A stretch of DNA of 64,000 nucleotides, from positions 22,039-86,038 of the forward strand of contig JAWOKN010000018.1 of assembly GCA_033854175.1 (NCBI GenBank). The letters are read 5' to 3'. This stretch comes from Bacteroidota bacterium (lineage in GTDB: Bacteria > Bacteroidota > Ignavibacteria > UBA10030 > SZUA-254). The notes under the pieces are model-generated. The model was not told where the DNA came from, ran no database searches, and saw only the letters and a list, made by a program, of their open reading frames with translations. The position numbers were made by a program, and so were the translations under genes. This document shows positions 25,459 through 47,000 of this stretch, piece after piece; positions within the stretch are counted from its first letter, which is position 1, and each line of letters begins with the position of its first letter.

Positions 25459-25530
25459 AGGCGCCGGGCGGATTCGGACCGCCGCATAAAGGTTTTGCAG
25501 ACCTCTCCCTTACCACTTGGGTACGGCGCC
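25459..25530 (-). tRNA. tRNA-Cys (anticodon GCA)
   Basis: 72 nt: GGCGCCGTACCCAAGTGGTAAGGGAGAGGTCTGCAAAACCTTTATGCGGCGGTCCGAATCCGCCCGGCGCCT. Anticodon loop CTGCAAA; discriminator U as in Cys tRNAs. Confidence 0.85.
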
Positions 25531-25655
25531 AGGAACTTTTTAAAATAATGCCCCGCCATCTGTACAGACCGGATGCGGCAGGGCGCGGCATCATACTCGT
25601 GCCAGATCATGATCCTGCCGGAAAACCGGCGAGGGATCTCTCTGACATGACCTTG

Positions 25656-25730
<75 letters not shown>

Positions 25731-28143: not shown

Positions 28144-29280
28144 TTATGATGAAAAGATAGCTTCCTCTTGCCGCAACGCTGCAAGACATTCCTGTTTCCA
28201 CACTTCAAAGGTGCCGCGGGTGATGCTCTCCCGCGCGCCCGCCATCAATGCCTGGTAATATGCCAGGTTGTGAATCGTCGCCAGCTCAAGCGCCAGAATC
28301 TCCCTGACCTGAAACAGATGCCGCAGGTATGCCCGGCTGAATGATCTGCATGTGTAGCACGAGCAGCCGTCATCAACCGGTGAAAAGTCGCGCCTGTATT
28401 TTGCATTCGTGATCGTTAACGGGCCGTGGCGGGTGAACAGCATCGCGTTCCTCCCGTTCCGCGTGGGCAGCACGCAATCAAACATGTCCACTCCCCTGGC
28501 AATCGCCTCAAGCAGGTTTTCGGGGGTACCGACACCCATCAGATACCGCGGCCGGTCCACGGGCAGTATCCCCGTGCAGACGGAGACCATGTCGTACATC
28601 CGCTCCACAGGCTCTCCCACCGCCAGACCCCCGATCGCATATCCGTCAAAATTCAACTCGCACAACGCCTTTGCGGAATATTCCCGTATGTCAGGATAAA
28701 TGCTTCCCTGCACGATCCCGAAAAGACCCTGCCGGTGTGCATAGAGCTCACGGCCTGACCTGGCATGACCCAGACACCGCTCAGCCCACCGCAGTGTCAG
28801 AGCATTCGATGACGCCGCGTAATCCCTTTCACACGGATACGGTGCACACTCGTCCAAGACCATCATGATGTCGGAACCTATCGCACGCTGGATGTCAATG
28901 ACAAGCTCGGGCGTAAATAAATGCACAGAGCCGTCAAGATGGGATTTGAACCGGACCCCGTCATCCTCGATTTTCCGGAGCTCCGACAGGCTGAACACCT
29001 GATACCCGCCGCTATCGGTGAGTATCGGCCTTTCCCAACCGATGAATTTATGCAAACCACCGATATCCTGCAAAATCCCGATGCCGGGCCGGAGATAGAG
29101 GTGATAGGTGTTCGAGAGCACGATTTCCGCCCCAATATCGACCAGTTCACGCTGCTGAATGGCCTTTACGGACCCTTGCGTCCCGACGGGCATGAAGACG
29201 GGCGTCTGGAATGACCCGTGATCGGTATGCATGACACCCCGGCGGGCATCCCCGTCGGTATGGATCAGTTCAAAGTTCAT
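28144..29280 (-). CDS. tgt: queuine tRNA-ribosyltransferase
   Basis: 378 aa. TIM-barrel TGT with the Zn site CxCxxC...H (CSCYTCRSFSRAYLRHL) and catalytic Asp motifs. Confidence 0.95.
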   Translation of the reverse strand: MNFELIHTDGDARRGVMHTDHGSFQTPVFMPVGTQGSVKAIQQRELVDIGAEIVLSNTYHLYLRPGIGILQDIGGLHKFIGWERPILTDSGGYQVFSLSELRKIEDDGVRFKSHLDGSVHLFTPELVIDIQRAIGSDIMMVLDECAPYPCERDYAASSNALTLRWAERCLGHARSGRELYAHRQGLFGIVQGSIYPDIREYSAKALCELNFDGYAIGGLAVGEPVERMYDMVSVCTGILPVDRPRYLMGVGTPENLLEAIARGVDMFDCVLPTRNGRNAMLFTRHGPLTITNAKYRRDFSPVDDGCSCYTCRSFSRAYLRHLFQVREILALELATIHNLAYYQALMAGARESITRGTFEVWKQECLAALRQEEAIFSS

Positions 29281-29388
29281 TTTTTAAAATTAAGCATTTT
29301 CCGCAGAAAAAACAATATTCGGCGGCATAATTCTCCGAAAAATGCCGCTAGCGAAAGTGGAAGAATGACAGTGAATCATTTCCCGGAA

Positions 29389-29799
29389 TCAACTCTGTGG
29401 TAAGGTCTTACCCCCTTTGTTTGACATATAGAGATAAATGGAGACGACGGCCAGCGCACAACCTATCGTATCTGCCGTGGCATCCCAAACGTCAGCTGTC
29501 CGGCCCGGCACGTACCGCTGATGGAATTCATCCACTACACCGTAGATCGAGACGGTCAAAAGCGTGAACAGACCCCTCGACCATGAAAATCTCCCCTTGA
29601 CCCAGAAGAGTGAGAATGCACGGTAGATACATAATCCAAAGATGTAGAAAATCGTGATGTGGATGAGCTTATCATATTGAAAAATCGACATGTCCGGGAA
29701 ATCATCCGACGGAATGGATGAACCGATAAAAATAACAATTGCCCACACAATTGCAGGCAACTGGTCCCTGAAGAAAGAACCCTTCAGAGTGTCGCTCAT
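29389..29799 (-). CDS. VanZ-like family membrane protein
   Basis: ~136 aa, four hydrophobic segments, VanZ signature (DKLIH..., VVDEFHQRYVPGRTADVWDATADTIG). The start was moved to the internal ATG that forms an ATGA overlap with the nnr stop; the longer track ORF would overlap nnr by 160 nt. Confidence 0.65.
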   Translation of the reverse strand: MSDTLKGSFFRDQLPAIVWAIVIFIGSSIPSDDFPDMSIFQYDKLIHITIFYIFGLCIYRAFSLFWVKGRFSWSRGLFTLLTVSIYGVVDEFHQRYVPGRTADVWDATADTIGCALAVVSIYLYMSNKGGKTLPQS

Positions 29800-31361
29800 C
29801 CGCTCTGCCTTACAAACCGGAACGCCTCCGGGATATGGGTCAGCATATCCATCGCCATGAGGCTTTTCTCGCCTATTTCCTTCTGTACCATGTCCCCGCT
29901 CAACCCATGCAGGTATACACCGCTGTAGGCAGCCTCCCCAGACCCCATCCCCTGCCCCCATAATCCGGATATGAGACCCGTCAGGACATCTCCCGAGCCT
30001 GCAGTCGCCATGCCGGCATTCCCTGTGGAATTCACGAATATATCTCCCCCGGGGAGGGCTGTGACCGTCGGTGCCCCCTTGAGCACGAGGATCACATTGA
30101 GCTGCCGTGAATATTGCCTTGAAAGGGCGATCCGATCTGCTTCAATTTCTGCCGACGGGATGCCGATGATCCTGGAAAGTTCGCCGGTGTGAGGAGTAAT
30201 GATCAGATTTTTGCTCCTGTGCTTCCTGAAAACCTGTGCGGCATGCTCGAAGGCGTTCAGACCGTCTGCATCCACAAGGAGCGGCTTCGAGACTGTCCTG
30301 ACCATCTGGCGTACCAGTTCAACAGTCTCGGGATGGACCGAGAGACCCGGACCCAGGACGACCACGTCAGCCCAGTCAATGTGCTGATGCATCTGATCGA
30401 GGGCGGTGACACTGAGACTCCCCCCCGAGGTCTCCCATAAGGGGGTGACCATTATTTCCGTGAGCTTCTTCGCCAGTATGGGGTAGACCGATTCTGGCGT
30501 CCCAAGTATGACGGCCCCGGCACCGCCGCGCATCGCGGCCATCGAAGCCATCGCTGCGGCACCGGTCAATCCCCTTGAACCTGCGACGACAAATATCTTG
30601 CCGACGTTGTGCTTGTGCACGTTGAACGGACGCAGGGGCAATGCACGCCTGACATCGTGCGGATGAATGATGTGTGTCGTGACCTTCCGGTTCAGGATCC
30701 CGGGCGGAAAGCCGATATCGGCAATCTCCGTTTTCCCGGTGAAAGCCCTGGCGTCACCCACGACCAGACCGGTTTTTCTGACGCACATGGTCACGGTAAG
30801 ATCGGCCCTTACACCCGCCCCACCGGCCTTGCCGGTGTCGGTGTCCAGACCAGAGGGGGAATCGATCGCAACCTTTATCCCCGGCTGCCGGTTGATCCAC
30901 TGAATAATGCTCCGGTAGGGTTCCCGGACCTCCCCGCTGAATCCGGTGCCGAAAATCGCATCAATGATACAATCATACTTCGGGAGCGAGGTCAGTGATT
31001 TTGGTGACGTATAGGCCTTCAGCCTGCATGTCCCTGGACTGCGGACGGCGAATGATCTGAAAATTTCATAATTCATCCTCGCGTCGTTCTTGTAATTTTT
31101 TGCGCCTGAGCACGTGAGCACGCTCACCGCGGCGCCGCGGAGATGCAGATGCCGTGCGGCCACAAATCCATCCCCTCCGTTATTTCCCTTGCCGCAGACG
31201 ATCAGAAACGACTTCCCATCCACCGGACCGAAATTCCTCTCGATGCTGTCAACCACACCCCGGCCGGCATTTTCCATCAAAAGAGATCCGGGAATCCTGA
31301 GCGTGCGGACCGCCGCCCGGTCACATTCCTGCATTTCACGTGACGAAAGAAGAGGCTCCAT
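29796..31361 (-). CDS. nnr: bifunctional NAD(P)H-hydrate repair enzyme Nnr (YjeF-N epimerase + YjeF-C ADP-dependent dehydratase)
   Basis: 521 aa with both YjeF_N (CGKGNNGGDGFVAARHL) and YjeF_C carbohydrate-kinase-like (GAGAVILGTPES...GSGDVLTG) domains. Confidence 0.9.
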   Translation of the reverse strand: MEPLLSSREMQECDRAAVRTLRIPGSLLMENAGRGVVDSIERNFGPVDGKSFLIVCGKGNNGGDGFVAARHLHLRGAAVSVLTCSGAKNYKNDARMNYEIFRSFAVRSPGTCRLKAYTSPKSLTSLPKYDCIIDAIFGTGFSGEVREPYRSIIQWINRQPGIKVAIDSPSGLDTDTGKAGGAGVRADLTVTMCVRKTGLVVGDARAFTGKTEIADIGFPPGILNRKVTTHIIHPHDVRRALPLRPFNVHKHNVGKIFVVAGSRGLTGAAAMASMAAMRGGAGAVILGTPESVYPILAKKLTEIMVTPLWETSGGSLSVTALDQMHQHIDWADVVVLGPGLSVHPETVELVRQMVRTVSKPLLVDADGLNAFEHAAQVFRKHRSKNLIITPHTGELSRIIGIPSAEIEADRIALSRQYSRQLNVILVLKGAPTVTALPGGDIFVNSTGNAGMATAGSGDVLTGLISGLWGQGMGSGEAAYSGVYLHGLSGDMVQKEIGEKSLMAMDMLTHIPEAFRFVRQSG

Positions 31362-31367
31362 CGGTCG

Positions 31368-32798
31368 CTAGTAGAGATTGGTGAGAAGGGAGAGGATCGA
31401 CGAGGGGTAGATCCCGATCCCGATGACGGCAAGGGCCACGATGCAGAGCACGATGACGCCGGAAGTCGAAAATCCGGCCGCGTATTCCTGCTCGGCATCC
31501 CTGAAGTACATCATCATCACCAGACGCAGATAATAATACAACGAAACGACACTCATCAGGACACCGAGGATGGCCAGCCATGTCAGGTTGGTCTGCACGG
31601 CGGCAAGAAAAACATAGTATTTCCCGAAAAAGCCGGCAAAGGGCGGTATCCCCGCGAGCGAGAACATGAATACCGCCATCAGCGCCGCCAAAAGGGGATG
31701 CCTCGATCCCAGACCCGCATAGTCGTCAAAGGTCAGGTTTTTTTCCTCCTCCCGCTCCAGAAGGGAAAGCACACCAAAGGCGCCGATGTTCATGAATGTG
31801 TAAACGATGAGGTAGAATAAAACGCCGTTTTTCCCCGTCATGTTGAACGCCGCCACACCCGCAAGCATGTATCCGGCATGGGCGATACTCGAATATGCGA
31901 GCATCCTCTTGATGTTGTTCTGTGATATCGCGATCACGTTCCCGACGATCATTGAAGCGGCCGAGAGAAGCGCCAGCACGAATTTTATTTTCTCCGCGGA
32001 AGAAAATTCCGGCCGTAAAAACACAATCACCAACGCCGAGAACGCTGCTGCCTTCGATCCCGTGGCCATAAAACCGCTGGCCGTCGTCGGCGAGCCCTGA
32101 TAGACATCCGGTATCCACATATGAAACGGTACGGCGCCGATCTTGAACGCAATGCCGATCAGAAAGAGACCCGCACCGAGCCAGAAGAACGATGACGTCG
32201 CCAGCGAGGAAAATTCGGCGGAAATGTCGGCGATATTGGTCGTTCCCGACGCCCCGTACAGAAACCCTATCCCGAAGAGCAGGAAGCCCGTTGCGAATGC
32301 ACCGAGGAGAAAATATTTGAGCGAGGACTCGTTCGATACAGCCCGGCGCCGGAAGAAACCCGCAAGGACATAGAGACAGATCGACATCAGCTCCAATCCG
32401 AGGAAAATCATGATCAGATCGGCCGCAGTCGCCATCAGCATCATCCCCAGCGTCGAAAAAAGGATCAGAAGGTAATATTCACCAAATATCGACTCCTCCT
32501 TCCGGAGATAATCCCTCGACAACATCACCGTCAGCAGCCCGGCAAGCGAAAAGAGGGCGGAAAAGAGACTCCCGATCCCCCCGACGCTTACCATACGGTT
32601 GAACACCACACCCGTGAGATCCAGAGATGAAAGGGATAAAAGGATTGTGAAAAATAGTCCGAATACGGTCAGCCAGTAACTTATCGCTTCACGCCGTTTC
32701 AGCAAGGCATCGGCGACAAGGACTGCAAGCGCAATGATGGTGAGAAAACTGATGGGGGCTATGACGATGATGTCAGAATAGTTCACTGGAATACCCAT
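31368..32798 (-). CDS. nuoN: NADH-quinone oxidoreductase subunit N
   Basis: 476 aa, ~14 TM helices, antiporter-like Nuo subunit. Assigned as N because it is the most distal and shortest of the three antiporter-like subunits, after L (660 aa) and M (520 aa). Confidence 0.8.
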   Translation of the reverse strand: MGIPVNYSDIIVIAPISFLTIIALAVLVADALLKRREAISYWLTVFGLFFTILLSLSSLDLTGVVFNRMVSVGGIGSLFSALFSLAGLLTVMLSRDYLRKEESIFGEYYLLILFSTLGMMLMATAADLIMIFLGLELMSICLYVLAGFFRRRAVSNESSLKYFLLGAFATGFLLFGIGFLYGASGTTNIADISAEFSSLATSSFFWLGAGLFLIGIAFKIGAVPFHMWIPDVYQGSPTTASGFMATGSKAAAFSALVIVFLRPEFSSAEKIKFVLALLSAASMIVGNVIAISQNNIKRMLAYSSIAHAGYMLAGVAAFNMTGKNGVLFYLIVYTFMNIGAFGVLSLLEREEEKNLTFDDYAGLGSRHPLLAALMAVFMFSLAGIPPFAGFFGKYYVFLAAVQTNLTWLAILGVLMSVVSLYYYLRLVMMMYFRDAEQEYAAGFSTSGVIVLCIVALAVIGIGIYPSSILSLLTNLY

Positions 32799-32964
32799 TA
32801 TTCGGATTATCAGGAGACCAAATTAGCAATATTTATGACTATTTACAAAATCATCCCCGAACCCGCCAGATGCCGCCATTGGTCCGATGCGCGATGCCTT
32901 TGCCGTCATTCCCATCGTCATCCACCTGCCGTTTTCCGGCCGCCTTGTTCACCGCGGCCCATCC

Positions 32965-34461
32965 TCAGAACCAGATCAGCCAAATAAGGACGAAGAGCGG
33001 CAGAAGAACCGGGATCGAATAACGCAGTATGTAGGTATGAAATGGGGGTGTCGGTATACCCGAATTTTCCGCAATCGATTTCACGACATAATTCGGGGCA
33101 TTACCGATGTATGTGAATGCCCCGAAAAAAACAGATCCGACCGAGATTGCCCTGATGACCGCTGGATGGTTGGCGATCAGATACCCGGTCCTGATTTTTT
33201 CACCTGATACATTCCCGGTGGCAAGCAGATTGCCGTAATTTCCCGCGAGGAACTCATATGCCGACTTTATCTGCTCCGCGTGTGCTCCCGAAATTGCTCC
33301 CAGTCCCGCCCCTTGAGTTGAGACCAGGTCAAATAACGTTTTGAGTGAATCATGGTCGATATTTAACCCCATCGAGGCTGTAAGGAAATTGAGGTACGTC
33401 GGCGCGTTATCCAGAATACTTGACAATATCCCGCTACCCCAGTAATAACCACCAATCGTCGAAAGGGGAAATGTAATCGCATTCCCCTCTAACCATTCAA
33501 GGACAGGAACGAGGGTAATGAAAATCCCCAGAAATAAAACCGCTATTTCCTTTAAAGGAAAGAAGTTAAATTCATTTCTTTTATAAATTTCCTTATGTGT
33601 TACACGTCTTGATATGATTGCAGATGCCACCATTATCGCTTCACGCAGCAACGGGGGACGATTTATGAAAACTGCCCCTAGGATGATTGCCAGAAATAGT
33701 ATATTATATTTACCAGTTACGGTGATTCTTTCAACCGGATATTTAATAGAATCAGCTGTTCCTCTCTTCTGAAATTTACGGAAACTTAATCTATCCACTA
33801 TGTAAAATAGGATGAGGAGGAGAATAACCGATACGAGCCATATCGGCCACACATTCTGACAAATCCAAAAGAATGGAACTCCAAGCAGATATCCAAGGAA
33901 AAGTGGCGGATCCCCCACTGGTAATAATGCTCCCCCTATATTGCAAACAAGAAAGATGAAAAAAATGATATGAAAATTCCTGTACCGGACATTATTGAGA
34001 CGTAAAAATGGGCGTATCAACACCATGGATGCTCCCATGGTGCCAAACAAATTTGACAATAATGCTCCTGCTCCCAGAAATATTACATTTCTGAAAGGTG
34101 TGGCCGATCCCCTGGCCTCCAGATGTATCCCCCCCGAAACAACATAGAGAGATCCGATGAGGGTGATAAAGCTGAAAAATTGATAGAATGTTTCGCCCAG
34201 ACGACCCGGATTATGCGATATAAATAGGCAATAAAGGGCCGTAACTGCCCCCAGAGGCAAAGATACCAGGGGATAGTACTTCTCCCACCATTTTTTTGAG
34301 ATGAACGGAATTACGGCGATTGAGAGGAGTAATAACGCAAACGGTATCATAGGAACCGCATCCAGCCAAGACGCACGAACGATCCCTCCCGCATCTGGCC
34401 TGTCTGTCGTTAATAAACCGGCGAGAAGAAAAAGATGATGTCCCGGCCGTAGGAACGTCAT
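32965..34461 (-). CDS. NhaD/ArsB-family (IT superfamily) ion transporter, putative Na+/H+ antiporter, embedded in the nuo module
   Basis: 498 aa polytopic membrane protein with the two-repeat architecture and length of NhaD-type antiporters. It lies between nuoM (4-nt overlap) and nuoN. Confidence 0.6.
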   Translation of the reverse strand: MTFLRPGHHLFLLAGLLTTDRPDAGGIVRASWLDAVPMIPFALLLLSIAVIPFISKKWWEKYYPLVSLPLGAVTALYCLFISHNPGRLGETFYQFFSFITLIGSLYVVSGGIHLEARGSATPFRNVIFLGAGALLSNLFGTMGASMVLIRPFLRLNNVRYRNFHIIFFIFLVCNIGGALLPVGDPPLFLGYLLGVPFFWICQNVWPIWLVSVILLLILFYIVDRLSFRKFQKRGTADSIKYPVERITVTGKYNILFLAIILGAVFINRPPLLREAIMVASAIISRRVTHKEIYKRNEFNFFPLKEIAVLFLGIFITLVPVLEWLEGNAITFPLSTIGGYYWGSGILSSILDNAPTYLNFLTASMGLNIDHDSLKTLFDLVSTQGAGLGAISGAHAEQIKSAYEFLAGNYGNLLATGNVSGEKIRTGYLIANHPAVIRAISVGSVFFGAFTYIGNAPNYVVKSIAENSGIPTPPFHTYILRYSIPVLLPLFVLIWLIWF

Positions 34462-36020
34462 TTGAGATTGTGAGGGGCCGGCGCTGGCAGGTGGTCAGTA
34501 ACGATCTGTTCGGTATGGGATTTTACTGCTGTGATGACCGATTTGGATGTCAGCACGGATTTACCGAGGAACGTCGTCGGATAGACACCGATCCATACAA
34601 TGAAAACAAGTATCGGAACCAGGACGGCAATTTCCCTGGCCGAGAGGTCCGGAAGACTTTTATTTTCCGGATGAGTGATTTCCCCGTAAATCACCCGCTG
34701 GTACATCCAGAGAAGATAAACGGCCGCAAGAATAACCCCGGTCGCCGCGGCAATAACATACCAGTTGGCAAGGACGGTGGAGTGGAACGCTCCGAGAAGG
34801 ATCAGAAATTCCCCCACAAAACCGTTCAGCCCCGGTAAACCGATTGATGAGAGGGTGACGATCATCAGAAAGACAGAATAGAGCGGCATGACCTTCGCGA
34901 TCCCGCCAAAGTCGGATATTAACCGGGTATGCCGCCGGTCGTAGATCATTCCCACCATGAGGAAGAGCGCACCTGTCGATAATCCATGATTGATCATCTG
35001 AATGATCGCACCCTGAATTCCCTCCTCTGTGAATGCGAATATTCCCAGAACAACGAACCCGAGATGGCTGACCGATGAATAGGCGACGAGTTTTTTGATG
35101 TCCGTCTGCACCATCGACACGAGAGCGCCATAGATGATGCCGATGATTGCCAGGGCGGCGATATAGGGCATGCAGGTTACCGATGCCTGCGGAAAAAGCG
35201 GAAGACAGAAACGCAGGAGCCCGTATGTCCCCATTTTCAGAAGGACACCCGCCAGGATCACGCTCCCTGCAGTGGGGGCTTCGACATGCGCATCAGGTAA
35301 CCAGGTGTGAAACGGGAAGAGGGGTATTTTGATTGCAAAACTGAGCGTAAATGCAAGGAACATCCACAACTGGATGGTCTGCGGAATGTTCGGCCCCAGG
35401 GAATACAACACGAGCAGGTCGGTCGTGAATTTCCCCCCAGGTACCGAACCGGCATAGAATCCCAGCCAGAGAATGGCAATCAGCATGAGAAGACTGCCGA
35501 ACATCGTGTAGAGGAAGAATTTTACCGCCGCGTAGATGCGGTTTCCCCCTCCCCAGATGCCGATGATGAAATACATCGGGATCAGCATCGCTTCCCAGAA
35601 GACATAAAAGAGAAATAGGTCGAGAGAGCAAAAGACACCGATCATCCCGGTCTCGAGGAAGAGGATCATGATCGTGTATTCTTTGACCCTGCTTGTGATG
35701 GATTTCCAGGAGGAAAGATATGCTACCGGCGTGAGAAGCGCTGTCAGCAATATCAGCAGAAGCGACATGCCGTCGATGCCGACATGATAGGATATCCCCA
35801 GCGGGGGAATCCAGAGGACATCCTGAACAAATTGCATCCCGCCCTGCTCGGGATTAAAACCCGCGTAGAGACCGAGCGCCAGAAGAAATGTCAGACAACT
35901 CAGAATCATCCCTCCCCACCGGATGATGCCCGCACGTCCCTTGCCGACGAAGAGGAGAAGAAGCGCTCCGACCAGCGGGAGGAATGTCGTTATGGTGAGA
36001 ATATTCACGGGTACGGTCAC
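34458..36020 (-). CDS. nuoM: NADH-quinone oxidoreductase subunit M
   Basis: 520 aa antiporter-like subunit; 4-nt overlap with nuoL. Confidence 0.85.
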   Translation of the reverse strand: MTVPVNILTITTFLPLVGALLLLFVGKGRAGIIRWGGMILSCLTFLLALGLYAGFNPEQGGMQFVQDVLWIPPLGISYHVGIDGMSLLLILLTALLTPVAYLSSWKSITSRVKEYTIMILFLETGMIGVFCSLDLFLFYVFWEAMLIPMYFIIGIWGGGNRIYAAVKFFLYTMFGSLLMLIAILWLGFYAGSVPGGKFTTDLLVLYSLGPNIPQTIQLWMFLAFTLSFAIKIPLFPFHTWLPDAHVEAPTAGSVILAGVLLKMGTYGLLRFCLPLFPQASVTCMPYIAALAIIGIIYGALVSMVQTDIKKLVAYSSVSHLGFVVLGIFAFTEEGIQGAIIQMINHGLSTGALFLMVGMIYDRRHTRLISDFGGIAKVMPLYSVFLMIVTLSSIGLPGLNGFVGEFLILLGAFHSTVLANWYVIAAATGVILAAVYLLWMYQRVIYGEITHPENKSLPDLSAREIAVLVPILVFIVWIGVYPTTFLGKSVLTSKSVITAVKSHTEQIVTDHLPAPAPHNLK

Positions 36021-37999
36021 CTCAAGATCAGGATCCCAAGCACGACGATGACACCGAGAACGAACGCAAAAACATACCCCTGGACGATCCCCATCTGGAT
36101 TTTACGGAGCTGGCCGCTGATGAGGTCGATGAGCCTGGCCGTTCCGTTGACGAGACCATCGATGATGTTGACATCAATCCCCTTCCAGAGTAATTTTTCA
36201 GACCCCCTCACGGTCGGCTCGACGACCGCATAGTCGTACATTTCGTCCACATAGTATTTATTCCAGAGGAGTTTGTACCAGAGGCGGGTGGATTTGGCAA
36301 CAATGTGCTCTTTCCTCGAAAAATAGGAACGCGCAAGGAGTATTCCTGCCACACCGGCCGCGACGGAAAGAAGCATCAGCAGGTATTCCATGCTCCTGCC
36401 GGCTTCGTGCAGAAGCGTCAGATGCGCCGTCGCAGGGGAAAAGACCGGCTCGAGCCATCGTTCGATGGCATTGTTTCCACCCAGAATGGCGGGAATGCCC
36501 GCAAATCCGCCGATGACCGATAGTACCGCGAGGATGATCAGGGGAACTGTCACGACCTTGGGCGATTCATGCGGATGCTTGTCAGCCTCCCACCGGCCCT
36601 CCCCTTCAAAGGTGAGAACGACAAGACGGAACATGTAAAAAGCCGTCATCAGGGCGGTTATCCAGCCGGCAAGCCAGAGAAGAAATGAGCCCTGAGAATA
36701 TGCCAGGAACAGGATTTCATCCTTACTGAAAAATCCCGAAAGCGGAGGTATACCCGAAATCGCCAGCGCTGCGATCAAAAATGTGGCATAGGTTGCAGGC
36801 ATTTTCGGCCTGAGCCCCCCCATGCGGGTGATATCCTGTTCGTTATGCAGCGAATGGATGACCGATCCGGCGCCAAGGAAGAGTAGGGCCTTGAAAAAGG
36901 AATGAGTCATGACGTGAAAAATCCCCGAGGAAAATCCTCCGACGCCAAGACCCAGGAACATATACCCCAGCTGACTGATCGTGGAATAGGCCAGAACCTT
37001 TTTTATGTCATTCTGCACGAGCCCCATCGTCGCGGCAAAGAATGCTGTCGCAACACCGATGACCGCAACGATTTCCATCGTCACCGGCGCCAGGGCGTAC
37101 AGGAGCGAGCAGCGTGCGACCATGTAGACGCCTGCGGTCACCATCGTCGCCGCATGGATCAGCGCGCTCACCGGCGTGGGCCCGGCCATTGCATCCGGAA
37201 GCCAGACGAAGAGCGGAATCTGAGCGGATTTCCCGGTGGCCCCGAGAAACAAAAGCAGGGTAATCCAGAACATCACCCTGTCACCGCTCTGAGTCACCGC
37301 ACCGGCCTTCATAAAAACCTCGCCGAAGTTCAGGCTCCCGTAATGCTGAAAAAGGAGAAACATGGCGATCAGGAATCCGAAATCCCCTATACGGTTGACA
37401 ATAAATGCCTTTTTCGCCGCATCAGAGGTCGTCGCGGTCCCGGGCTTGTATCCGCCGGTGTCGAATTTCCGGTCATGCCAGAATCCGATGAGAAGGTAGG
37501 AGCAGAGTCCGACACCCTCCCATCCGAGAAACATCAGGAGGAAATTATCCGCAAGGACAAGATTCAGCATCATGAAAATGAAGAGATTCATGTAGGAGAA
37601 GAATCTCCAGAATCCCCCGTCACCGTGCATGTACCCGATCGAGTAGATGTGAATCAGGAATCCCACCCCCGTGACGATCAGCGTCATGAGGACCGAGAGC
37701 TGATCGATCTGATAGGCCGCATCGATGGAGAGTGAACCGGCGGATATCCAGTGAAAAAGCGTCACGATGTGCGAACGTTCCTCCGCGGGAGCTTTGACCA
37801 TGTCGAGGAATATCGCCGCCGCCACGAGAAACGATACCCCCACGGCTCCGGCCCCGATATACCCGCTGACTCTCTCCGAACGGATCATCTTTCCGAAGAT
37901 ACCGTTCAGGAGAAATCCGACAAGCGGACCGAGGGTGAGATATGCTCCTAGTGTGTACAAATGTTCTATCCCCGCCGGCATGATACCTGCATTTACCAT
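36017..37999 (-). CDS. nuoL: NADH-quinone oxidoreductase subunit L
   Basis: 660 aa. Antiporter-like core plus a long C-terminal amphipathic helix region, typical of NuoL. Confidence 0.9.
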
Positions 38000-38301
38000 T
38001 TCATGAGATTGATTTCATCGATATTCACCGTCTGCTTGTTGCGGAACAATGCGATAATAATCGCAAGTCCGATGGCTGCCTCCGCGGCCGCCACCGCCAT
38101 GACGAAGAAGACAAGGATCTGGCCGTTCGTCGTGCCCAAATAGGATGAAAACGCCACAAGCGAAAGATTGGCGGAGTTCAGCATCAGCTCAATGGACATG
38201 AACACAATAATGGCGTTGCGCCGGGTCAGGACACCCAGAACCCCGATGGAAAACAAGACAACGCTCAGAACCAGGTAATATTGTAAGGGAATTTCGTTCA
38301 T
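37993..38301 (-). CDS. nuoK: NADH-quinone oxidoreductase subunit K
   Basis: ~102 aa, three TM helices ([46 protein letters not shown]...). Start moved to the internal ATG 4 nt after the nuoJ stop. Confidence 0.85.
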
Positions 38302-38305
38302 CCGG

Positions 38306-38842
38306 TCAACGAAACTTTTTCTTCGCAAGAACAATCACGCCAACCATCGCCGCAAGAAGCAGCACGGACGTGACCTCGAAGGGGAAGAGATAATCCCGGT
38401 AGAGGGATTTCCCGATAAATTCCACTGTGCCCATTTCCGCAGCCTGGGCACTGATTTTTTCCTGGAGATATCCCCACCGTATCCCCATCCCGAGAATGAC
38501 CTCGATCATGACAACGATCCCGGCGATAATACCGGCAGTGAGCCGGAGGCCCTTCTTTTCACCGAACGCGCCGACGTCGCCGAGATTCAGGAGCATGATC
38601 ACGAACAGGAAAAGCACCATAATCGCACCCGCATAGACGATCACCTGAATGATCGCGATAAACTGGGCCTTGAGGAATAGATACAGAACCGCAAGTGAAA
38701 AAAAATTGACGATGAGAAATAAAACCGATTTGACGGGGTTCCGGCGGGTAATCATCATGAGCGCCGATGCTACCGCAGCAGCGGCGACAAGAAAAAAGAA
38801 AATCTTCTCAACACTCATGGACGGAATGGCAATTTTAAACAA
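38306..38842 (-). CDS. nuoJ: NADH-quinone oxidoreductase subunit J
   Basis: 178 aa, five TM helices, NuoJ/ND6 family. It is the first gene of the JKLM-(nhaD)-N string; no nuoA-I genes lie upstream. Confidence 0.8.
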
Positions 38843-38880
38843 CCTTCGAATGTAACAAATTATTTAAAATATTCAAATTC

Positions 38881-40131
38881 TCAGGATGACCGGATCAGCG
38901 CCACGAGTTCGCCCAGCGACGGCCGTTTCCCGTAGGAGAGGATCGTCGTCCTGAAAATTTTTCCCGCAATCCACATCATCACGACAACGCTTCCCGCCCC
39001 AAGAACCAGTGTGGCGATGATCTCCGACACGGGAGGCATCTGGTTCGGGATCCTCATGATCATGAAGGACGGCGATAGCAGCGGAATGTATGACATGACC
39101 TTTATCAGCGTGGAGTTCGGGTTCTCCGCGACGGAAAATGCGAGCACGATCGGTATGATCAGGATCATGACGAGATAACTCGTGATCTGCTGCGCTTCCT
39201 GCTCCGTCGATACCGGCGAACCGAGTGCAACAAATATCGCAGCATACAGGAGGTATCCCAGGATGAGATAGCATAAGATCAGCACCATCGCCGGCACCGG
39301 GAGCATCGGAATGGAAAATTTCACGGTCACCACGATCCCGATGACCACCCAGAACAACAGCTGGGTGATGCCCAAACCGCTGAGTCCGATGATTTTACCG
39401 GCCATCAGATCGCCTGCCGAACAGGATGACATCAGTACTTCAACCACCCGGTTCGACTTTTCCTCAAGCATGCTTCGGACGAGCATCTGCCCGGAAGTCA
39501 TGATGAGAATGAACATCATCATCATGAAGATGTACGCCGTAAAAAACACCTGCCCGAACCCCGACTCTTCCTCCTGCCCGGACTTCGTCAGCTTGATGGT
39601 CTTCAACTCCAGAGGCCTGGTCAGATCCCCCACCCTGACCGGATCAAGCCCCTGCTCCTTCAGCTTCTCCGACACGATCAGCTCCCGCAATGCCGACCGG
39701 AGCGATTCCGTCACCCTGATATTGCCGACATTCTTTGATCGGTAATTCACCACAGTGTCACGGAGATAATCCTTGCGGATGATCAGATACCCCTCCAGTG
39801 ACTCCGCAACCGTGAGCGAATCGGCGAGATGTTTCGCCGCCGTGACATCGCCGCCCGTACCGGGTGGAAATGACCGCAGGAGATAATTCGGCTGCCCGTT
39901 GGGGAGCCTGTACCGCTGCTCAAGGAGACGGGCCAGCGGTTGGACAACCTGACCGGAGAGGTCGATGATACCGATAGTCTTGCTCTCGGTGTCCGCCCGT
40001 GAGGCCAGGAGCGCCGGAATGACACTTGCGGCAATCATGATCGCCGGGGTGAGGAAAAGGGAGATGAGGAATGCCTTCGATTTGATCTTCTCGGTGTACT
40101 CCCACCGTGCAACCGCAACTGTTTTTTTCAT
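38881..40131 (-). CDS. ABC-2 family transporter permease
   Basis: 416 aa. N-terminal TM helix, large extracytoplasmic loop, then 5 TM helices (NatB/YhaP-like topology). 4-nt overlap with the upstream ATPase gene. Confidence 0.7.
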   Translation of the reverse strand: MKKTVAVARWEYTEKIKSKAFLISLFLTPAIMIAASVIPALLASRADTESKTIGIIDLSGQVVQPLARLLEQRYRLPNGQPNYLLRSFPPGTGGDVTAAKHLADSLTVAESLEGYLIIRKDYLRDTVVNYRSKNVGNIRVTESLRSALRELIVSEKLKEQGLDPVRVGDLTRPLELKTIKLTKSGQEEESGFGQVFFTAYIFMMMMFILIMTSGQMLVRSMLEEKSNRVVEVLMSSCSAGDLMAGKIIGLSGLGITQLLFWVVIGIVVTVKFSIPMLPVPAMVLILCYLILGYLLYAAIFVALGSPVSTEQEAQQITSYLVMILIIPIVLAFSVAENPNSTLIKVMSYIPLLSPSFMIMRIPNQMPPVSEIIATLVLGAGSVVVMMWIAGKIFRTTILSYGKRPSLGELVALIRSS

Positions 40132-41057
40132 TGGGACCCCCCACCGGAACTGCGGCCGGACCCGACAAGATCGAGAAAAATGGCCTGCAGCGACGGTTCC
40201 GCAATTTCAAACCTGCGGATTTCGATCGCAGGCGAGCGGTCTGCTATCGCATGCAGTAAACCGGTGGACGACGCGCCGTCAGCAAGCACAATTTCGGCGG
40301 AGTTCTCGTACACATACGCGCTGAGTACACCGGGAAGCGCCCTCAGAAAGTCACCGTTTCCCTCATACTCGAGCTGGATCGATTGTCTCCCGTATTTCCT
40401 TTTGACATCCGACAGCCGGCCGTCGATCACAACCTGACCCTTGTTGATCAGCGAAATCGTATCGCAGAGCTTGTCTGCCTGCTCCATTTGATGGGTGGAA
40501 AAGATGATCGCCCTCCCCTCCCTCTTGAGCTCCATCAATATCTCCGTGAGCACGATCTGGTTGATGGGGTCGAGACCCGAAAAAGGCTCATCGAGGATGA
40601 TCAGCCGCGGCTCGTGGAGAACCGAGATGATGAACTGGACTTTCTGCTGGTTACCCTTCGAGAGCTCCTCGACTTTCCTGTTGTAATACTCCAGAAGATT
40701 GAAACGCTTCAGGAGGTCATAGGCTCTCCGTTTTCCCTCGGCGACGGGAATACCGCGGAGATGGGCAAAATAGAGAATTGTGTTGATCAGGGAACTCTTC
40801 CGATATAAACCGCGCTCCTCCGGAAGATAACCGATGGTGTTCCTGACCTCATCCGAAAACTCCCTTCCCGCATACGTGATGCGTCCCGCGTCAGGCTGGA
40901 TGATGTTCAGAATCATCCTGATCGTGGTCGTCTTCCCCGCACCGTTCGGACCGAGGAGCCCGAGTATTTGGCCGCCGCCGACGTTCAGGGACACGTTGTC
41001 GACCGCCAGCACCGTTGAGTACTGCTTCCTGATATGGGAAACTTCAAGCATGAACAA
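40128..41057 (-). CDS. ABC transporter ATP-binding protein
   Basis: 309 aa. Walker A GPNGAGKTTT, signature LSKGNQQKV, Walker B ILDEPFSGLD, and a C-terminal accessory domain. Confidence 0.9.
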   Translation of the reverse strand: MFMLEVSHIRKQYSTVLAVDNVSLNVGGGQILGLLGPNGAGKTTTIRMILNIIQPDAGRITYAGREFSDEVRNTIGYLPEERGLYRKSSLINTILYFAHLRGIPVAEGKRRAYDLLKRFNLLEYYNRKVEELSKGNQQKVQFIISVLHEPRLIILDEPFSGLDPINQIVLTEILMELKREGRAIIFSTHQMEQADKLCDTISLINKGQVVIDGRLSDVKRKYGRQSIQLEYEGNGDFLRALPGVLSAYVYENSAEIVLADGASSTGLLHAIADRSPAIEIRRFEIAEPSLQAIFLDLVGSGRSSGGGSQ

Positions 41058-42353
41058 TCAGGGCTGCAACCGGTAAATCATGCGGGGGAAGGGGATCGTC
41101 TCCCGGATATGCTCAAGACCGCAGATCCAGGCCACCGTACGCTCGATCCCCAGACCGAAACCCGAATGGGGAACTGACCCGTACCTGCGCAGATCGAGAT
41201 ACCATTCGAACGCTGCCTGCGGGAGCTTGTGTTCCTTGAGGCGCTGAAGAAGGATATCGTAATCGTCTTCACGCTGGCTCCCGCCGATGATCTCACCATA
41301 CCCCTCCGGCGCAAGTACATCCATCGCCAGCGCAAGGTCCGGATTTTCGGGATCGCGTTTCATGTAGAAGGCTTTGATCCCCGCGGGATACCGGTGCACG
41401 ATGACCGGTCTGTCAAACTTCTCGGAGATCACCGTTTCATCGGTTCCGCCGAAATCGTTGCCCCATTCAAAATCCACACCTTTTGAATGCAGGATCTCGA
41501 CAGCCTCGCTGTAGGATATCCGCGGCAACGGCTTTTTGACATTTTCAAGAAATTTCGTGTTGCGCTCCAGCACCTGCAATTCCTGGCGGCGGTTGCTGAG
41601 TACGGAACCGACGATGTGTTCAAGGAATTCTTCGGCCAGTTCCATGTTATCAGCCAGATCGTTGAACGCTACCTCGGGTTCAACCATCCAGAACTCTGTC
41701 AGATGCCTCCGGGTTTTGGATTTTTCCGCCCTGAACGTCGGACCGAAAACATAAATCTTTCCCAAAGCCATCGCACCCGCCTCCCCGTACAATTGACCCG
41801 ACTGCGTGAGGTACGCTTTTCCAAGGTCAAAATAATCGGTCTCAAAGAGCGTCGATGTTCCTTCGCATGCGGCAGGTGTGAAAATCGGCGCGTCGACAAG
41901 GATAAATCCCCGCGTATCGAAAAACTCCCGGATTGCACTGATGATCTGATGGCGTATCCGTAAGATCGCGTTCTGACGCTGGGACCTGAGCCAGAGATGC
42001 CGGTGATCCATCAGAAATTCAACTCCATGCTCCTTCGGGGTGATCGGATACTCTTTCGCGATGTTGTAAATCCTCATCCCCGAGAGTTCCATTTCATACC
42101 CTCCCGGTGCCCGCGCATCCTTTTTAACCTTGCCCGTCACGCTCAGGGAGGTCTCCTGCGTCAACCTGTCAAACGAATCAAAGATCTCGTCGGCGACCAA
42201 TCCCTTGACCATGACACACTGCAGCAACCCCGTCCCGTCGCGCAGGATGACGAAACGGATTTTCCCGCTCGAACGTTTGTTGTACACCCACCCCTGAATC
42301 GTGACAGGCTCTCCGACATAGTGTCCGAGATCTTCAATATAGATGCGAGACAT
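41058..42353 (-). CDS. asnS: asparagine--tRNA ligase
   Basis: 431 aa class IIb aaRS. Clear AsnS matches ([21 protein letters not shown]; [21 protein letters not shown]); the length fits AsnS rather than AspS. Confidence 0.9.
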
Positions 42354-42444
42354 AGAATTCTTGATGTTCTGGTGAGAAAACTCTGAATATACAAAAGAAT
42401 CCGGAGATCTTCAACGCGCGGCCATTCCCCTCCCCGAAGGAGGC

Positions 42445-43299
42445 TTACCGGCGATCCCGCTCGATTCTTGCCAGTTCCTTCAGTACGAGCGCAACATCCT
42501 CATCCAGGAAATGACGCGAGAGCCTCCTGGCACGCCGGATGTCGTTCTGATCAATCTCGGTGAAAAGAAGTTCCTCCTTGAAGTACTTTGCCCTGACAAG
42601 GACGTCACCGGACGGAGTGACGACTTCCGACCCTCCCCAGAAATTAATCCCGTCCTCATACCCCACCCTGTTACAAAAAACGATGTGGGTGCTGAGAAGG
42701 CGGGCAATCGCCTGGTGCTGCACACTGTTGACCTGAGCGATGTGCGGGTCCGGATCAGTTCCGGATAACCGGGTCGGGCTTGCTGCGATGCAAAAAATCA
42801 CCTCCGCACCATCCAGGGCAAGGAGATAGGGAAGTGCAAGATGCCAAAGATCCTCGCAGATCAGCACCCCTATCCTGCCTATCGGGGAATCAAACGCCCG
42901 GACGGATGTCCCCCTGCTGAAGTAGCGCGCCTCCTCGAACATGCCATAGGTCGGGGGATAAATCTTCCTGTGGACGGTCCGCACCGTGCCGCGGTCAAAG
43001 AGAAACGCGGCATTGTGTATTCCGTACGATGCAGATTCTTCCACACCCCCCGCAAGTATCGTGCAATCCGTGCTCTCTCCGGCGATCGCCGAAAGGGCCG
43101 GCGCATCATCAGTCCGGAGTGCAAGATTCCAGTTCAGATCCTTGATCGAATAGCCGGTAAGACTCAGTTCGGGGAAAACGACAAAATCGGCACCTCCTTC
43201 TTTCGCCCGGCGGATCGCCTCGATGTGCGTTGCGCAGTTTTTTTTAATGTCCCCGACAGCGGTATCGATCTGGGCAATGGCAATTGTCCGTATAGTCAT
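42445..43299 (-). CDS. carbon-nitrogen hydrolase family protein (nitrilase/omega-amidase-like)
   Basis: 284 aa with the catalytic triad context E (VVFPELSLTGY), K and C (VLICEDLWH). Confidence 0.85.
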   Translation of the reverse strand: MTIRTIAIAQIDTAVGDIKKNCATHIEAIRRAKEGGADFVVFPELSLTGYSIKDLNWNLALRTDDAPALSAIAGESTDCTILAGGVEESASYGIHNAAFLFDRGTVRTVHRKIYPPTYGMFEEARYFSRGTSVRAFDSPIGRIGVLICEDLWHLALPYLLALDGAEVIFCIAASPTRLSGTDPDPHIAQVNSVQHQAIARLLSTHIVFCNRVGYEDGINFWGGSEVVTPSGDVLVRAKYFKEELLFTEIDQNDIRRARRLSRHFLDEDVALVLKELARIERDRR

Positions 43300-43409
43300 C
43301 CTGCAACGGTCCTTTCCGGATGTACGATCATGTGCTTTTCTGGCAGTTGATGGTGGAGCAAGGGTCGGAACTTTCTCGCCCTGGCGCCGACGAGGTGTCG
43401 CCGCAAGGG

Positions 43410-44084
43410 CTACGAGAGGTCGAGCATTTTGATGTCTTTGATGTACTTGATGGTCTTATCGACCTTCAGGGATTTCAGCTTGTCCAGCTTCGACATGATG
43501 CGGTGGACGTTCTCATCGATGATTTTGATGTAGTTCTTGTGCGCCTCCAGGTTCGGCTGGCGCTTGAATTCTTCTGTGATATCGAACATTTCACTGAGCG
43601 GGGACTCAAAGTCGTGGATCACCCCGGCGAGCGTCTGGTGGATGGCCTTCAGCCGTTCCTGGCTGATTTCAAGTTCGGTTTTCTGCCGTTGAAGCCGGTA
43701 TTTTTCCACAATCCTCAGGACCGTCTTTGGCAAGATCGGAGAGGAGATTTCTTCCTTGACAAGATAATCATCGACACCGAGCTTCATCACATCCAGCGCG
43801 AGGTCAAAATCCTTGTTGACGGTGAGAAAGACAATCGGGACCGAGATCCGTTTCCCCTTGATGTCTTTTGTGATCTCCAGGCCGTTCTTCCCGGGGAGAA
43901 AATAATCCATCAGGACGATGTCGATACCGGTGTTCTGCTCCAGTTCCTTCATGGCATCGGCGTGATTTTCCTTCCAGATCACCTCGAACAGGTTTTTTTG
44001 GAAGCGCTGGAGATAGGCCTGTACGAGCTTCGCGAAGTCTTTGTTATCCTCGACCAGGAGGATCCGAATTATCGATGTTTCCAC
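43410..44084 (-). CDS. response regulator with a C-terminal HisKA-like (DHp) domain and no ATPase domain
   Basis: 224 aa. REC domain (LLVEDNKDFAKL...DIVLMDYFLPGKNG...VFLTVNKD) followed by a helical region with an H-box-like motif LAGVIHDFESPLSEMFDITEE (compare SHELRTPL of HisKA). No HATPase_c motifs. Confidence 0.75.
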   Translation of the reverse strand: METSIIRILLVEDNKDFAKLVQAYLQRFQKNLFEVIWKENHADAMKELEQNTGIDIVLMDYFLPGKNGLEITKDIKGKRISVPIVFLTVNKDFDLALDVMKLGVDDYLVKEEISSPILPKTVLRIVEKYRLQRQKTELEISQERLKAIHQTLAGVIHDFESPLSEMFDITEEFKRQPNLEAHKNYIKIIDENVHRIMSKLDKLKSLKVDKTIKYIKDIKMLDLS

Positions 44085-44093
44085 GCTATGTCT

Positions 44094-47000
44094 CTAGGGC
44101 AGTTGTGTCATGGGCAGCGTCAGGAAAAAGGTCGAACCGACTCCGATCTCGGATTCGACCCAGATCGCGCCTTTGTGCATTTCAATGATTTTTTTCACGA
44201 TCGCAAGACCCGCACCGCTTCCTTCATATTCCTCACGCCGGTGAAGCCGTTGAAAAATGACGAAGATCTTGCCAAAATACTCCTTTTCAATGCCGATGCC
44301 GTTGTCCTTCACCCAAAAAAGATAATAATTATTTTCCGCATTTCGAAATCCGACCTCCACAACAGGTTCCGGCTTGTCATTGAACTTGATCGCATTACCG
44401 ATGAGATTCCGAAAGACGATTTTCAGGTGGATCTCATTCCCCCAGACATCCGGGAGGTTTTCAGGCACCTGAAACCGGACATTGCGCTTGGTGATGATGA
44501 ATTTCATGTCGGCCAGGGTTTCCTGGATGACGCCGTTCATCGACACGGACCGGTAGGCCTCGGATGGCCGGCTGAGCCGGGAGAGAAGAAGAAGATCGTC
44601 GATAAGCCCCTTCATCCTCGTCGTCGCCCCAACGATCGACAACAGATATTCCCTCCCCTCCTCCTGAAACATGTCCCGGTAATCGTCTTGGAGTATCCTG
44701 CTGAATCCCTCGATGCTGATCAAAGGCTCCTTCAGGTCATGGGAGACGACATAGGTAAAATCGTCCAGTTCCTTGTTTCGCCGCTGGATTTCCTCCGATA
44801 TGTGTATCGTCTCCTCGTACAATTTTCCCTTGTCAAGCGCAATCGCGGCAAGGTTGGCGACGTTCTCCAGGGTGTACCGCTGGTGTTCGCCATACGGCTC
44901 GTCAGGCGCCCCGTGGAGCGTGATCACGCCGGTGATCGCCTCTTTTGAGAGCATCGGAACCGACAGGACCGACTGATCCTCGTTGATGAACGAGCGCCGG
45001 AACGAGATCGCCCGATGCTCGGGTGAATCGTACGGAAATTCAGTCAGGGGAGTGGAGGTGAACGTCTGGACATCACCCGACGGGGTGCAGACGACCTCGT
45101 GCTGAACCGAATGTGTGGGATTTGCCTCATCATAGGACATAAGACCGAATCTTCTATAGGGAATGAGGCGGAAAATATTCTGCGCGACAATCGTGATGAT
45201 CCGGTCGATCTCCAGCGCCGAGGTGAGCTGCTGGCTGAGTTCATACAGCGCGGTCAGACTGTCAATTTGCGAGCGCAACTCGCTGTATAACCGCGCAGCC
45301 TCGATCGCGGAGCCCAGCTGGCTTCCCACAAGCGTCAGGATCTGACGGTCCTGCTCAGAAAACTGAGTCGGTTGACCATAGAAAAAATCCAGCGCCCCGG
45401 TGACATTATCCTTCGACAGGAGCGGAATCACCGCCATCGACTCGTACGACAGATTCCGAAGAACCTGGCGGTTGTGTGCAAGGATTCTCTGATCCTCATA
45501 GGCGCGCCGTTCGACGTACAGCGGTTCGCGCATGTCGATCACGGTACCCGTCAGCGAGTTATTCCTCTTCAGACGCGCCAGGGACTGAAATACGGATTCC
45601 TCAAAACCGATCTGCATGGCCGCAGTCAGCTCCTCGGATCCCGTCCGCGTGAGATAGACGATGACCGCCTCCGCTCCGCTCACAAGACGCAACAGGGGAA
45701 GAGAGGCGTCGAGCATCTCATCCAGGCTCCGGGAGGTGCTTACGCGGGAGGAGATTTCCGTCAGTAACAACAACTGATCGTTGAACCGGCGCAGCTGCGA
45801 TTCGCTGTCTTTCAGAGCCGTGATGTCAGTGTAGGTAAACACCAGGCCGCTGATACCCCCGCCGTTACCCATCGGATTCACGGTAATCTGATATATCCTC
45901 CCCGCCGGGGATCCGTGGAACATGTATTCATCCGAGTAGATCGCAAGCGTCCCATCCAGCAGACGCGGGATGACATCCCGCAGGGTTTCACGCAGGGACG
46001 CATCCGGCAGAACATCGAAGAGATGCTTTCCCGTGTATTCACCCTCTACCTGTGAGCCGGATTCGAGCACAAACTGATGCCCGGCATGATTGACCTCGCG
46101 TATTCTGCAATCCCTGTCGACGGTGATGACAATGTTGTCGACGGAATCGAGCAGACTCCGGATGTAGGTCGAGTCGTCCCGCACCTGGCGGAAGAGCTGG
46201 ATGCGATCAATGATCGCCCCGAGGTGCTGGATGATCGGCTGCAGGAGTTCGGCATGACTGCTGTTGTATGCCCCTTGCGTGCCGTATGCGACGTTCAGCG
46301 TCCCGGCCACCTTTCCCTTCAGCAGAATCGGAACACATAACTGTGAACGCATCCCCCCACTCAGGCTTACCAGCTCGCGATAGACCGGCTCCGCGAGAAG
46401 ATCGTCGACAATCATCGGCCTTGCATCGGACAGGACATTCCGGGAGAGGGTTTTTTCGAGCGGGATGCGGTCTCCCTGCTTCACGACCGATGTGCCCGCA
46501 ACCGCATACATCAGAAGGGCCGTATGATCCTCCGTGAACAATCCTATCGAAAGAGCATCAAACGGAAGGAGTTTCCCGATTTCATCCTTCAACAGGGAAA
46601 ACACCTCCTCGAAATCGTTCGTCTCGTTTGCCTTGCCGACGATGCGGTTGATCAGCTCAATCTGCGTGTTGCGGTGCTCAAGATCCTTCATTAACCGGAT
46701 TCTCTCGGTGATATCCCGAGCCACATTGAGCATCCCGACCGGCTGACCCGACGCACCCCGCAGGAGCGTCGTGCTGACACTCACCGGGATCCTGTCACCG
46801 TCCCTTGTTTGCCAGGTCATGTCAAAATCATGGAGCCATTTTTTCTCCCTCAGCGAGGCTATCCACAGGACGTAACGTCCCATCTCCTCTTCCATAAGCC
46901 AGGGATACGGAAACTTGCATCCGGTTGCCTCAGCAGGGGAAAATCCCAAAACGGTTTCAAACGAGCGGTTGAATTGTTGAACCGCCCCCTCCAGATCGGT

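Follow-up and report, generated by a model that had tools for sequence, protein, structure and literature searches.

Genes for the membrane arm of respiratory complex I that lie apart from those for the other subunits raise the question of whether they still serve a canonical NADH dehydrogenase (NDH-1) or encode a cation/proton antiporter complex in their own right, and a transporter gene lodged among them adds the question of what it carries and how closely it is tied to the enzyme. Such a locus lies in a 64-kb window (64,000 nt; positions 22,039 to 86,038 of the forward strand of contig JAWOKN010000018.1, assembly GCA_033854175.1) from a member of the Bacteroidota. A preliminary description of this DNA had recognized nuoJ, nuoK, nuoL, nuoM and nuoN, with a gene for a 498-aa transporter between nuoM and nuoN, and matches to hidden Markov models (HMMs) of protein families placed all six genes exactly where it had put them (Table 1). 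In our reading, which we consider very probable, these genes make up the distal operon of a canonical complex I that is encoded in separate parts, in a bacterium of the FCB group (Fibrobacterota, Chlorobiota and Bacteroidota) close to Ignavibacteria-like Bacteroidota, and the embedded gene codes for a probable NhaE antiporter.

Judged by their sequences, NuoJ to NuoN are canonical complex I membrane-arm subunits. The match of NuoL to TIGR01974 runs from end to end (model positions 5-629 of 630) and takes in the C-terminal lateral-helix region; on NF005141, the same protein reached 751 bits (cut-off 556). NuoM scored 608 bits on NF004499 (cut-off 585), NuoN exceeded the cut-off of TIGR01770 (333 bits) and NuoK that of NF004322 (128 bits), while NuoJ stayed under the cut-off of NF005164 (137.5 bits, cut-off 154) and passed that of PF00499 (33 bits). 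The best match of NuoM in the PDB was NuoM of Paracoccus complex I (8qby_M, E = 4.7e-138). All the key charged residues of the three large subunits, that is, the Glu of transmembrane helix (TM) 5, the Lys of TM7 and of TM8, and the Lys/Glu of TM12, were found to be kept: in NuoL within the motifs WEGVG (E161), GKSAQ (K257), HSFFKALLF (K370) and GFFSKD (K426/D427), in NuoM as E143, K231, K262 and E404, and in NuoN as E136, K219, K249 and K393. The assignment of these motifs to helices follows the established numbering for Escherichia coli and Thermus thermophilus. NuoK retains both E-channel glutamates, E49 and E85 (numbering of the open reading frame, ORF). Neither the HMM scores nor the charged residues of NuoJ to NuoN gave any sign of a degenerate or Mrp-like module.

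The same layout recurs widely. A scan of species-representative genomes yielded 80 loci with homologues of the transporter, onto which the proteins of the window were mapped. In 32 of the 80, the gene immediately upstream of the transporter is nuoM, and two more loci in which the upstream part is missing show the order transporter-nuoN-nnr. The entire block asnS-ABC-ABC-nuoJKLM-transporter-nuoN-nnr is found in 14 loci and also in L081, a metagenome contig from JGI that is the nearest relative and is syntenic with the window from a histidine kinase gene of ~2,000 aa with PAS and GAF domains to thrS. The upstream trio alone (asnS, ABC ATPase and ABC-2 permease) keeps its order in at least 17 related loci, again with L081 in addition. 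Carriers bear the label Ignavibacteriota, Bacteroidota, Chitinophagales or Kryptonium. The FCB-type asnS-nuoJKLM-transporter synteny was also observed, with 54-81% identity to the window, in L015 and L074 (also L006, and related labels), metagenome-assembled genomes (MAGs) labelled Chromatiales or Acidobacteriota; finding this synteny under such labels suggests mis-binning or mislabelling of public entries.

The preliminary description had likened the locus to the split nqo10-14-type operon of Rhodothermus marinus, and this comparison is borne out by a layout kept in dozens of FCB genomes. The R. marinus nqoB operon reportedly runs nqo10-nqo11-nqo12-nqo13-nhaD-nqo14. With this order, the transporter between nuoM and nuoN occupies the same site, between nqo13 and nqo14, as the founding member of the NhaE family, and the two loci have in common the splitting of the complex I genes, the J-K-L-M-antiporter-N order, an ion transporter (IT) superfamily antiporter and an FCB host. 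They differ, on a comparison by gene order, in that the present locus has a GC content of ~54% and its nearest relatives among Ignavibacteriae/Bacteroidota MAGs, with nnr 3' of nuoN, asnS and an ABC-2 exporter 5' of nuoJ, and a 166-nt spacer before nuoN. As a hint at lineage, the arrangement is broad, the nearest relatives being labelled Ignavibacteriae or Bacteroidota and not specifically Rhodothermus. The title of Melo et al. (2005, BBA 1709:95) itself places the R. marinus antiporter among complex I genes. The arrangement is one already known since 2005, shared by dozens of related genomes and common in its lineage.

Could nuoJKLMN and the transporter instead form a stand-alone, Mrp-like cation/proton antiporter complex, with no electron-input module and in a genome devoid of nuoA-I? 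The two kinds of system are related, since MrpA and MrpD are homologous to NuoL/M/N and MrpC to NuoK. In contrast with Mrp (cation/proton antiporter family 3, CPA3), however, the subunits encoded here are Nuo orthologues at the equivalog level; on Nuo models, NuoK, NuoL, NuoM and NuoN reach 2-3 times the scores that they have on models for Mrp, Hyf or Fpo (751 bits against 310 on the Mrp model in the case of NuoL), and the large subunits stay far under the Mrp cut-offs. No gene for MrpB, MrpE, MrpF or MrpG was detected in the window, and the glutamates retained in NuoK are those that link the E-channel to NuoH and NuoA. What favors a stand-alone complex is the lack of nuoA-I nearby. As the preliminary description had stated, none lies upstream of nuoJ, and indeed no other nuo gene was found in the 64 kb, where scanning the rest of the large ORFs against Pfam yielded housekeeping genes only and tblastn searches with NuoB, NuoCD, NuoH and NuoI (queries taken from L006, a Planctomycetia MAG) gave only noise. 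Nor does any FCB-type locus contain nuoB, nuoCD, nuoH or nuoI less than 10 kb from the transporter, which indicates that the split of the nuo genes is lineage-wide. A 542-aa ORF (43320-44948, plus strand) is without a Pfam match and showed in tblastn a weak similarity, at the level of chance (E = 7e-4), to an N-terminal extension carried by the NuoI ORF of L006; as a candidate for NuoI it was rejected, since it has no Fer4 region.

Cultured relatives with the same split possess all 14 genes. The 14-subunit NDH-1 of Ignavibacterium album is encoded in three clusters (PMC3362086), and the genes of Melioribacter roseus are distributed as ndhABCDEF (Mros0160-0155), ndhJKLM (Mros0138-0135), ndhN (Mros0132) and ndhGHI (Mros2032-2034), with two genes, not named in the publication, between ndhM and ndhN (PMC3534657). 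Compared by published gene order, the likeness of these systems to the present one lies in the three clusters and, for M. roseus, in the separation of ndhJKLM and ndhN by two genes. Respiration and growth of M. roseus are rotenone-sensitive, and its NuoG is expressed. Because these relatives have separate nuo clusters, nuoA-I are presumably located at other loci of the genome under study, and a stand-alone antiporter complex is therefore very unlikely indeed.

Ten co-directional genes, from asnS to nnr, occupy 29.8-42.4 kb of the window on the minus strand (Table 1), the neighbors upstream of nuoJ being, in agreement with the preliminary description and by family HMMs, an ABC transporter and asnS. 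From asnS to nnr the junctions measure 0, -4, +38, -29, -7, -4, -4, +166 and +6 nt, the first three of which make asnS, the ABC ATPase gene, the ABC-2 permease gene and nuoJ contiguous. The value of -29 nt at nuoJ/nuoK is spurious and stems from choosing the longest ORF: both NCBI and JGI call a 102-aa NuoK from an ATG at 38301, 4 nt past the nuoJ stop, and this is likely the true start. For nuoJ, the NCBI call is 170 aa, implying a start at 38818, versus the 178-aa ORF. The tight coupling through 4-nt overlaps that had been proposed for the whole set holds for nuoL/nuoM (GTGA) and nuoM/transporter (ATGA), whereas nuoK and nuoL overlap by 7 nt, nuoJ and nuoK are separated, and nuoN stands at a distance from the transporter. 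The nuoM/transporter overlap requires the 498-aa start, as against the NCBI call (P0001) of 461 aa from M38; in the sister locus L081 the overlap is identical and the product is 500 aa. From the overlapping genes we infer that nuoJKLM are co-transcribed with the transporter, a conclusion that they support well, and read-through into nuoN-nnr is plausible.

Table 1. Genes and other features of the asnS-nnr block, listed in the direction of transcription (positions in the window).
Feature	Position	Strand	Evidence and remarks
asnS	41058-42353	-	HMM family assignment; 5'-most gene of block
ABC ATPase, DrrA-like	40128-41057	-	HMM family assignment
ABC-2 permease, ABC2_membrane_3	38881-40131	-	HMM family assignment
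nuoJ (Nqo10)	38306-38842	-	PF00499 144 bits, full model covered; 178-aa ORF, TTG start
nuoK (Nqo11)	37993-38334 (longest ORF)	-	NF004322 133.1 bits
nuoL (Nqo12), 660 aa	36017-37999	-	TIGR01974 755 bits
nuoM (Nqo13), 520 aa, GTG start	34458-36020	-	TIGR01972 641 bits
Transporter, 498 aa	32965-34461	-	PF16980 CitMHS_2, E = 1.7e-124
Transporter/nuoN spacer, 166 nt	32799-32964	-	
nuoN (Nqo14), 476 aa	31368-32798	-	TIGR01770 456 bits
nnr, bifunctional NAD(P)H-hydrate epimerase/dehydratase	29796-31361	-	PF03853 + PF01256; TIGR00196 and TIGR00197 both above cut-off
Terminator-like hairpin, 12-bp stem then T-run	29736-29763	-	Consensus match only

The gene nnr begins 6 nt past nuoN, is kept 3' of nuoN in ~25 related loci and is directly followed by the strongest terminator-like site within 29000-42600; the transcription unit probably ends with it. 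The short gap, the hairpin and the conserved position suggest that an NADH-repair gene is carried on the complex I membrane-arm transcript. The junction between the transporter and nuoN is more variable and is an insertion hotspot in relatives. Among 27 loci, the gap measures 13-90 nt in 18 and ~180-195 nt in 2, and in the remaining 7 it is filled with 1.2-7.5 kb of inserted genes, such as a gene on the opposite strand for a protein with a Por_Secre_tail domain of the type IX secretion system (T9SS) in L081 (11698-12417, minus strand), ~6 kb of unrelated genes in L024 (11427-17276), and ~1.4 kb in L020, L027 and L043. The 166-nt spacer of the window contains no terminator-like site. An internal nuoN promoter was considered and rejected, since a Bacteroidetes-type motif (TTTG-N19-21-TAnnTTTG) is absent before nuoN both in the window and in the 27 relatives, with a chance -7 box in 2 of the 27. 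A structured RNA or one of a known family was likewise rejected for the spacer, which matches no Rfam family and shows no more folding than shuffled controls (z = -0.22).

The transporter had initially been assigned to the NhaD/ArsB family. The NhaD name dates from 2005; the protein matches PF16980 (CitMHS_2), with a weak clan-level match to CitMHS (PF03600, 45 bits), and the R. marinus protein with which it had been compared is now placed in NhaE. A comparison with the NCBIfam models, those for NhaD and ArsB included, gave no hit even at E ≤ 10, so that the protein fails membership in both families, and the possibility of an ArsB accompanied by ars genes found no support, as there was no PF02040 (ArsB) match at E ≤ 1e-3 and no ars gene in the window. 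Among PDB sequences there was no match. Homologues number more than 7,900; their RefSeq name is 'sodium:proton antiporter' and their JGI COG-style label 'NhaD/arsenite permease-like'. A confident AlphaFold2 model built from 63 homologues (pLDDT 86, pTM 0.84) predicts an IT-superfamily elevator fold of the ArsB/SLC13 kind, with ArsB as the closest solved structure (10tp_A, E = 4e-5, TM-score 0.49-0.56), followed by SLC13/DASS transporters. The protein thus has its superfamily and predicted fold in common with NhaD (TC 2.A.62, Transporter Classification) and ArsB, and differs from them in the lack of a family-model match, in an identity to ArsB of 14% and in the absence of ars genes.

A pointer to the probable function comes from Neisseria. 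A homologue present once in each of two N. gonorrhoeae chromosomes (both entered in PLSDB as plasmids), whose 90% cluster includes N. meningitidis proteins, aligns over its full length with the transporter (34% identity, E = 1e-79), scores 624 bits on PF16980 and is named 'sodium:proton antiporter' in RefSeq. The R. marinus antiporter, first called NhaD, founded the separate family NhaE (TC 2.A.111), and this protein and a homologue from N. meningitidis have been characterized, both conferring Na+ resistance (PMC9408914). If the Neisseria homologue is taken as the assayed NhaE, the transporter is most probably an NhaE-type Na+/H+ antiporter, and we infer Na+/H+ to be its substrate. It resembles NhaE in its PF16980 domain and in its full-length homology to the Neisseria protein, and differs in that the copy in the window carries unusual substitutions at conserved sites and that its activity is a predicted one.

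The surroundings of the transporter elsewhere were also informative. In 43 of the 80 loci no nuo gene lies nearby, and no other recurrent neighbor hinting at a substrate was found in more than 5 of these 43. In L006 (438-11395), a contiguous nuoB-CD-H-I-J-K-L-M-N cluster is followed, 4 nt past nuoN, by a CitMHS_2 transporter; no nuoEFG is in view in this locus. The order nuoN-transporter is also found in L035 (Omnitrophica) and in L040. In L011 (11475-18924) and L033 (~2319-9787) a full Mrp-type operon, with genes for MnhE, G, B and C, two MrpD-like genes and a gene for a 581-aa antiporter-like protein, lies directly 3' of the transporter; in L033 it separates the transporter from nuoN, and the L011 locus shows no orthologue of nuoN after it. 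The N. gonorrhoeae homologue (L083, 2836-6637, NZ_CP119140.1) is located upstream of nqrA at a distance of ~1 kb, with an IS1595-type transposase fragment in between; nqrA opens the gene set of the Na+-translocating NADH:quinone oxidoreductase (Na+-NQR). Although chromosomal, the 2.17-Mb sequence NZ_CP119140.1 is listed among the plasmids of PLSDB. On plasmids of Azospirillum lipoferum (L084, 2241-7326) and Desulfolutivibrio (L085, 987-7359), the homologue, a 'sodium:proton antiporter', is preceded in the same orientation by genes of tripartite ATP-independent periplasmic (TRAP) transporters, with a few small genes between in the case of Desulfolutivibrio. The Mrp, nqrA and TRAP contexts are compatible with Na+ cycling.

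Within its block, the transporter has evolved at a pace of its own. Its GC content at third codon positions (GC3), 0.459, is the lowest of 40 large genes in the window (mean 0.646, standard deviation 0.053), and the difference in GC3 between transporter and nuoM amounts to -0.19, as compared with -0.026 ± 0.040 in 32 syntenic relatives. Identity to L081 is 79-87% for the Nuo proteins, AsnS and the permease, 64% for Nnr and 54% for the transporter, for which a fit across relatives predicted ~72%. Out of 197 columns conserved at 90% or more, the protein departs from the consensus at 31, as opposed to a mean of 4.0 (standard deviation 4.5) in other homologues and 23 in the sister; the departures include E94Q, T142M, S173C and T180L, of which S173C and T180L fall in the hairpin motif SN(I/M)GGALTPIGDPP. 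The transporters of L081 and L024 show the same trend. Recent xenologous replacement, a possibility prompted by the low GC3, is disfavored by a neighbor-joining tree, admittedly crude, in which the window protein groups, on long branches, with its sister (P0002, L081) and that of L024. Because the three stay together, vertical descent with acceleration is favored as the simpler reading.

Such divergence raises the possibility that the protein carries another ion or an organic anion instead of exchanging Na+ for H+, and is drifting toward a new specificity or toward loss of function. The extreme GC3, the excess of substitutions at conserved positions and the gap in identity between this protein and its Nuo neighbors (~80% to the sister locus) can all be read in this way, as can the Pfam name 'putative citrate transport' and the fact that the nearest solved folds are those of ArsB and of SLC13 anion transporters. 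On the other hand, the ORF is intact and every column invariant across the 63 homologues is kept, including N174-G176-G177 and L350-N352-A353-P354. Furthermore, an arsenite substrate finds no backing in Pfam or in the neighboring genes, the characterized relatives are Na+/H+ antiporters, and the genomic contexts elsewhere fit Na+ cycling. We therefore regard a different substrate, or decay, as unlikely.

A further alternative concerns the partnership itself. The transporter might be a stoichiometric, obligate accessory of complex I that docks on the distal membrane arm and exchanges Na+ for the H+ being pumped. Its adjacency to nuo membrane-arm genes at two positions in different phyla would be expected of such a protein, as would the overlap of its start with the nuoM stop, the fact that only nuo genes recur as its neighbors, and the proximity of the Neisseria copy to Na+-NQR genes. 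However, roughly every second homologue (43 of 80 loci) lies away from any nuo gene, and the frequent inserts between transporter and nuoN, together with its fast evolution, speak of a loose partner rather than a core subunit. Moreover, elevator transporters usually function as self-contained homodimers. On balance, an obligate accessory seems improbable.

The reading of the locus as the distal operon of a canonical complex I with an NhaE-type antiporter also has to face some contrary points. In the 64-kb window, to which the search was confined, nuoA-I were not seen. The IT superfamily has very diverse substrates, and just two NhaE members have been assayed. With the 166-nt spacer, and with the inserts found there in relatives, nuoN may be transcribed separately from the upstream genes. 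Finally, in view of the 31 departures among 197 conserved columns and of an evolution much faster than that of its neighbors, the activity of the transporter may be altered or weakened.

Under the favored interpretation, that is, a split-encoded complex I accompanied by an antiporter, nuoJ and nuoK would contribute part of the E-channel and nuoL, nuoM and nuoN the three antiporter-like proton-pumping subunits, while the subunits of the peripheral arm and the proximal membrane arm (nuoA-F, nuoG-I) would be supplied from elsewhere in the genome, an arrangement known from Ignavibacterium, Melioribacter and Rhodothermus. Translational coupling to nuoM would lead to the transporter being made alongside the membrane arm, and its supply would thereby be tied to respiratory activity. 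Driven by the proton-motive force that complex I generates, it would expel Na+ or trim pH.

A bolder proposal, to which we grant only a slim chance, is that CitMHS_2/NhaE-type proteins are dedicated partners of respiratory NADH dehydrogenases rather than generic housekeeping antiporters, providing a physically or kinetically coupled outlet for Na+, and that selection on this partner has changed sharply in the lineage under study. The placements that prompt the proposal are those between nuoM and nuoN in the Ignavibacteriota/Bacteroidota/Rhodothermus group, after nuoN in Planctomycetia and Omnitrophica, and next to Na+-NQR genes in Neisseria. If this were true, the fast evolution of the transporter in this lineage, its low GC3 and its hairpin substitutions could signal that its ion specificity has shifted or that the coupling has been lost.

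Some other features of the window deserve mention. The ABC-2 pair upstream of nuoJ was considered as a NatAB-type Na+ pump, which was not supported, since its homologues carry generic 'ABC-2' names and no specific HMM matched. At 44094-50102 (minus strand) lies the gene for a sensor histidine kinase of 2,002 aa, rich in PAS and GAF domains, which has the same relative position in L081. Between thrS and greA there are four clustered tRNA genes (25216-25728, minus strand).

The locus in itself is of little consequence. The pattern to which it belongs indicates that, over a wide and largely uncultured portion of the FCB group, a complex I operon of the Rhodothermus kind, enclosing an antiporter gene, is what is normally found, and the family label of the antiporter is corrected here from NhaD to NhaE/CitMHS_2. 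The presence of CitMHS_2 family members beside nuo genes, in two positions, and beside Mrp and Na+-NQR genes keeps alive the old question of how the cycles of Na+ and H+ are linked at complex I, and the pattern points to organisms and constructs in which this link could be tested.

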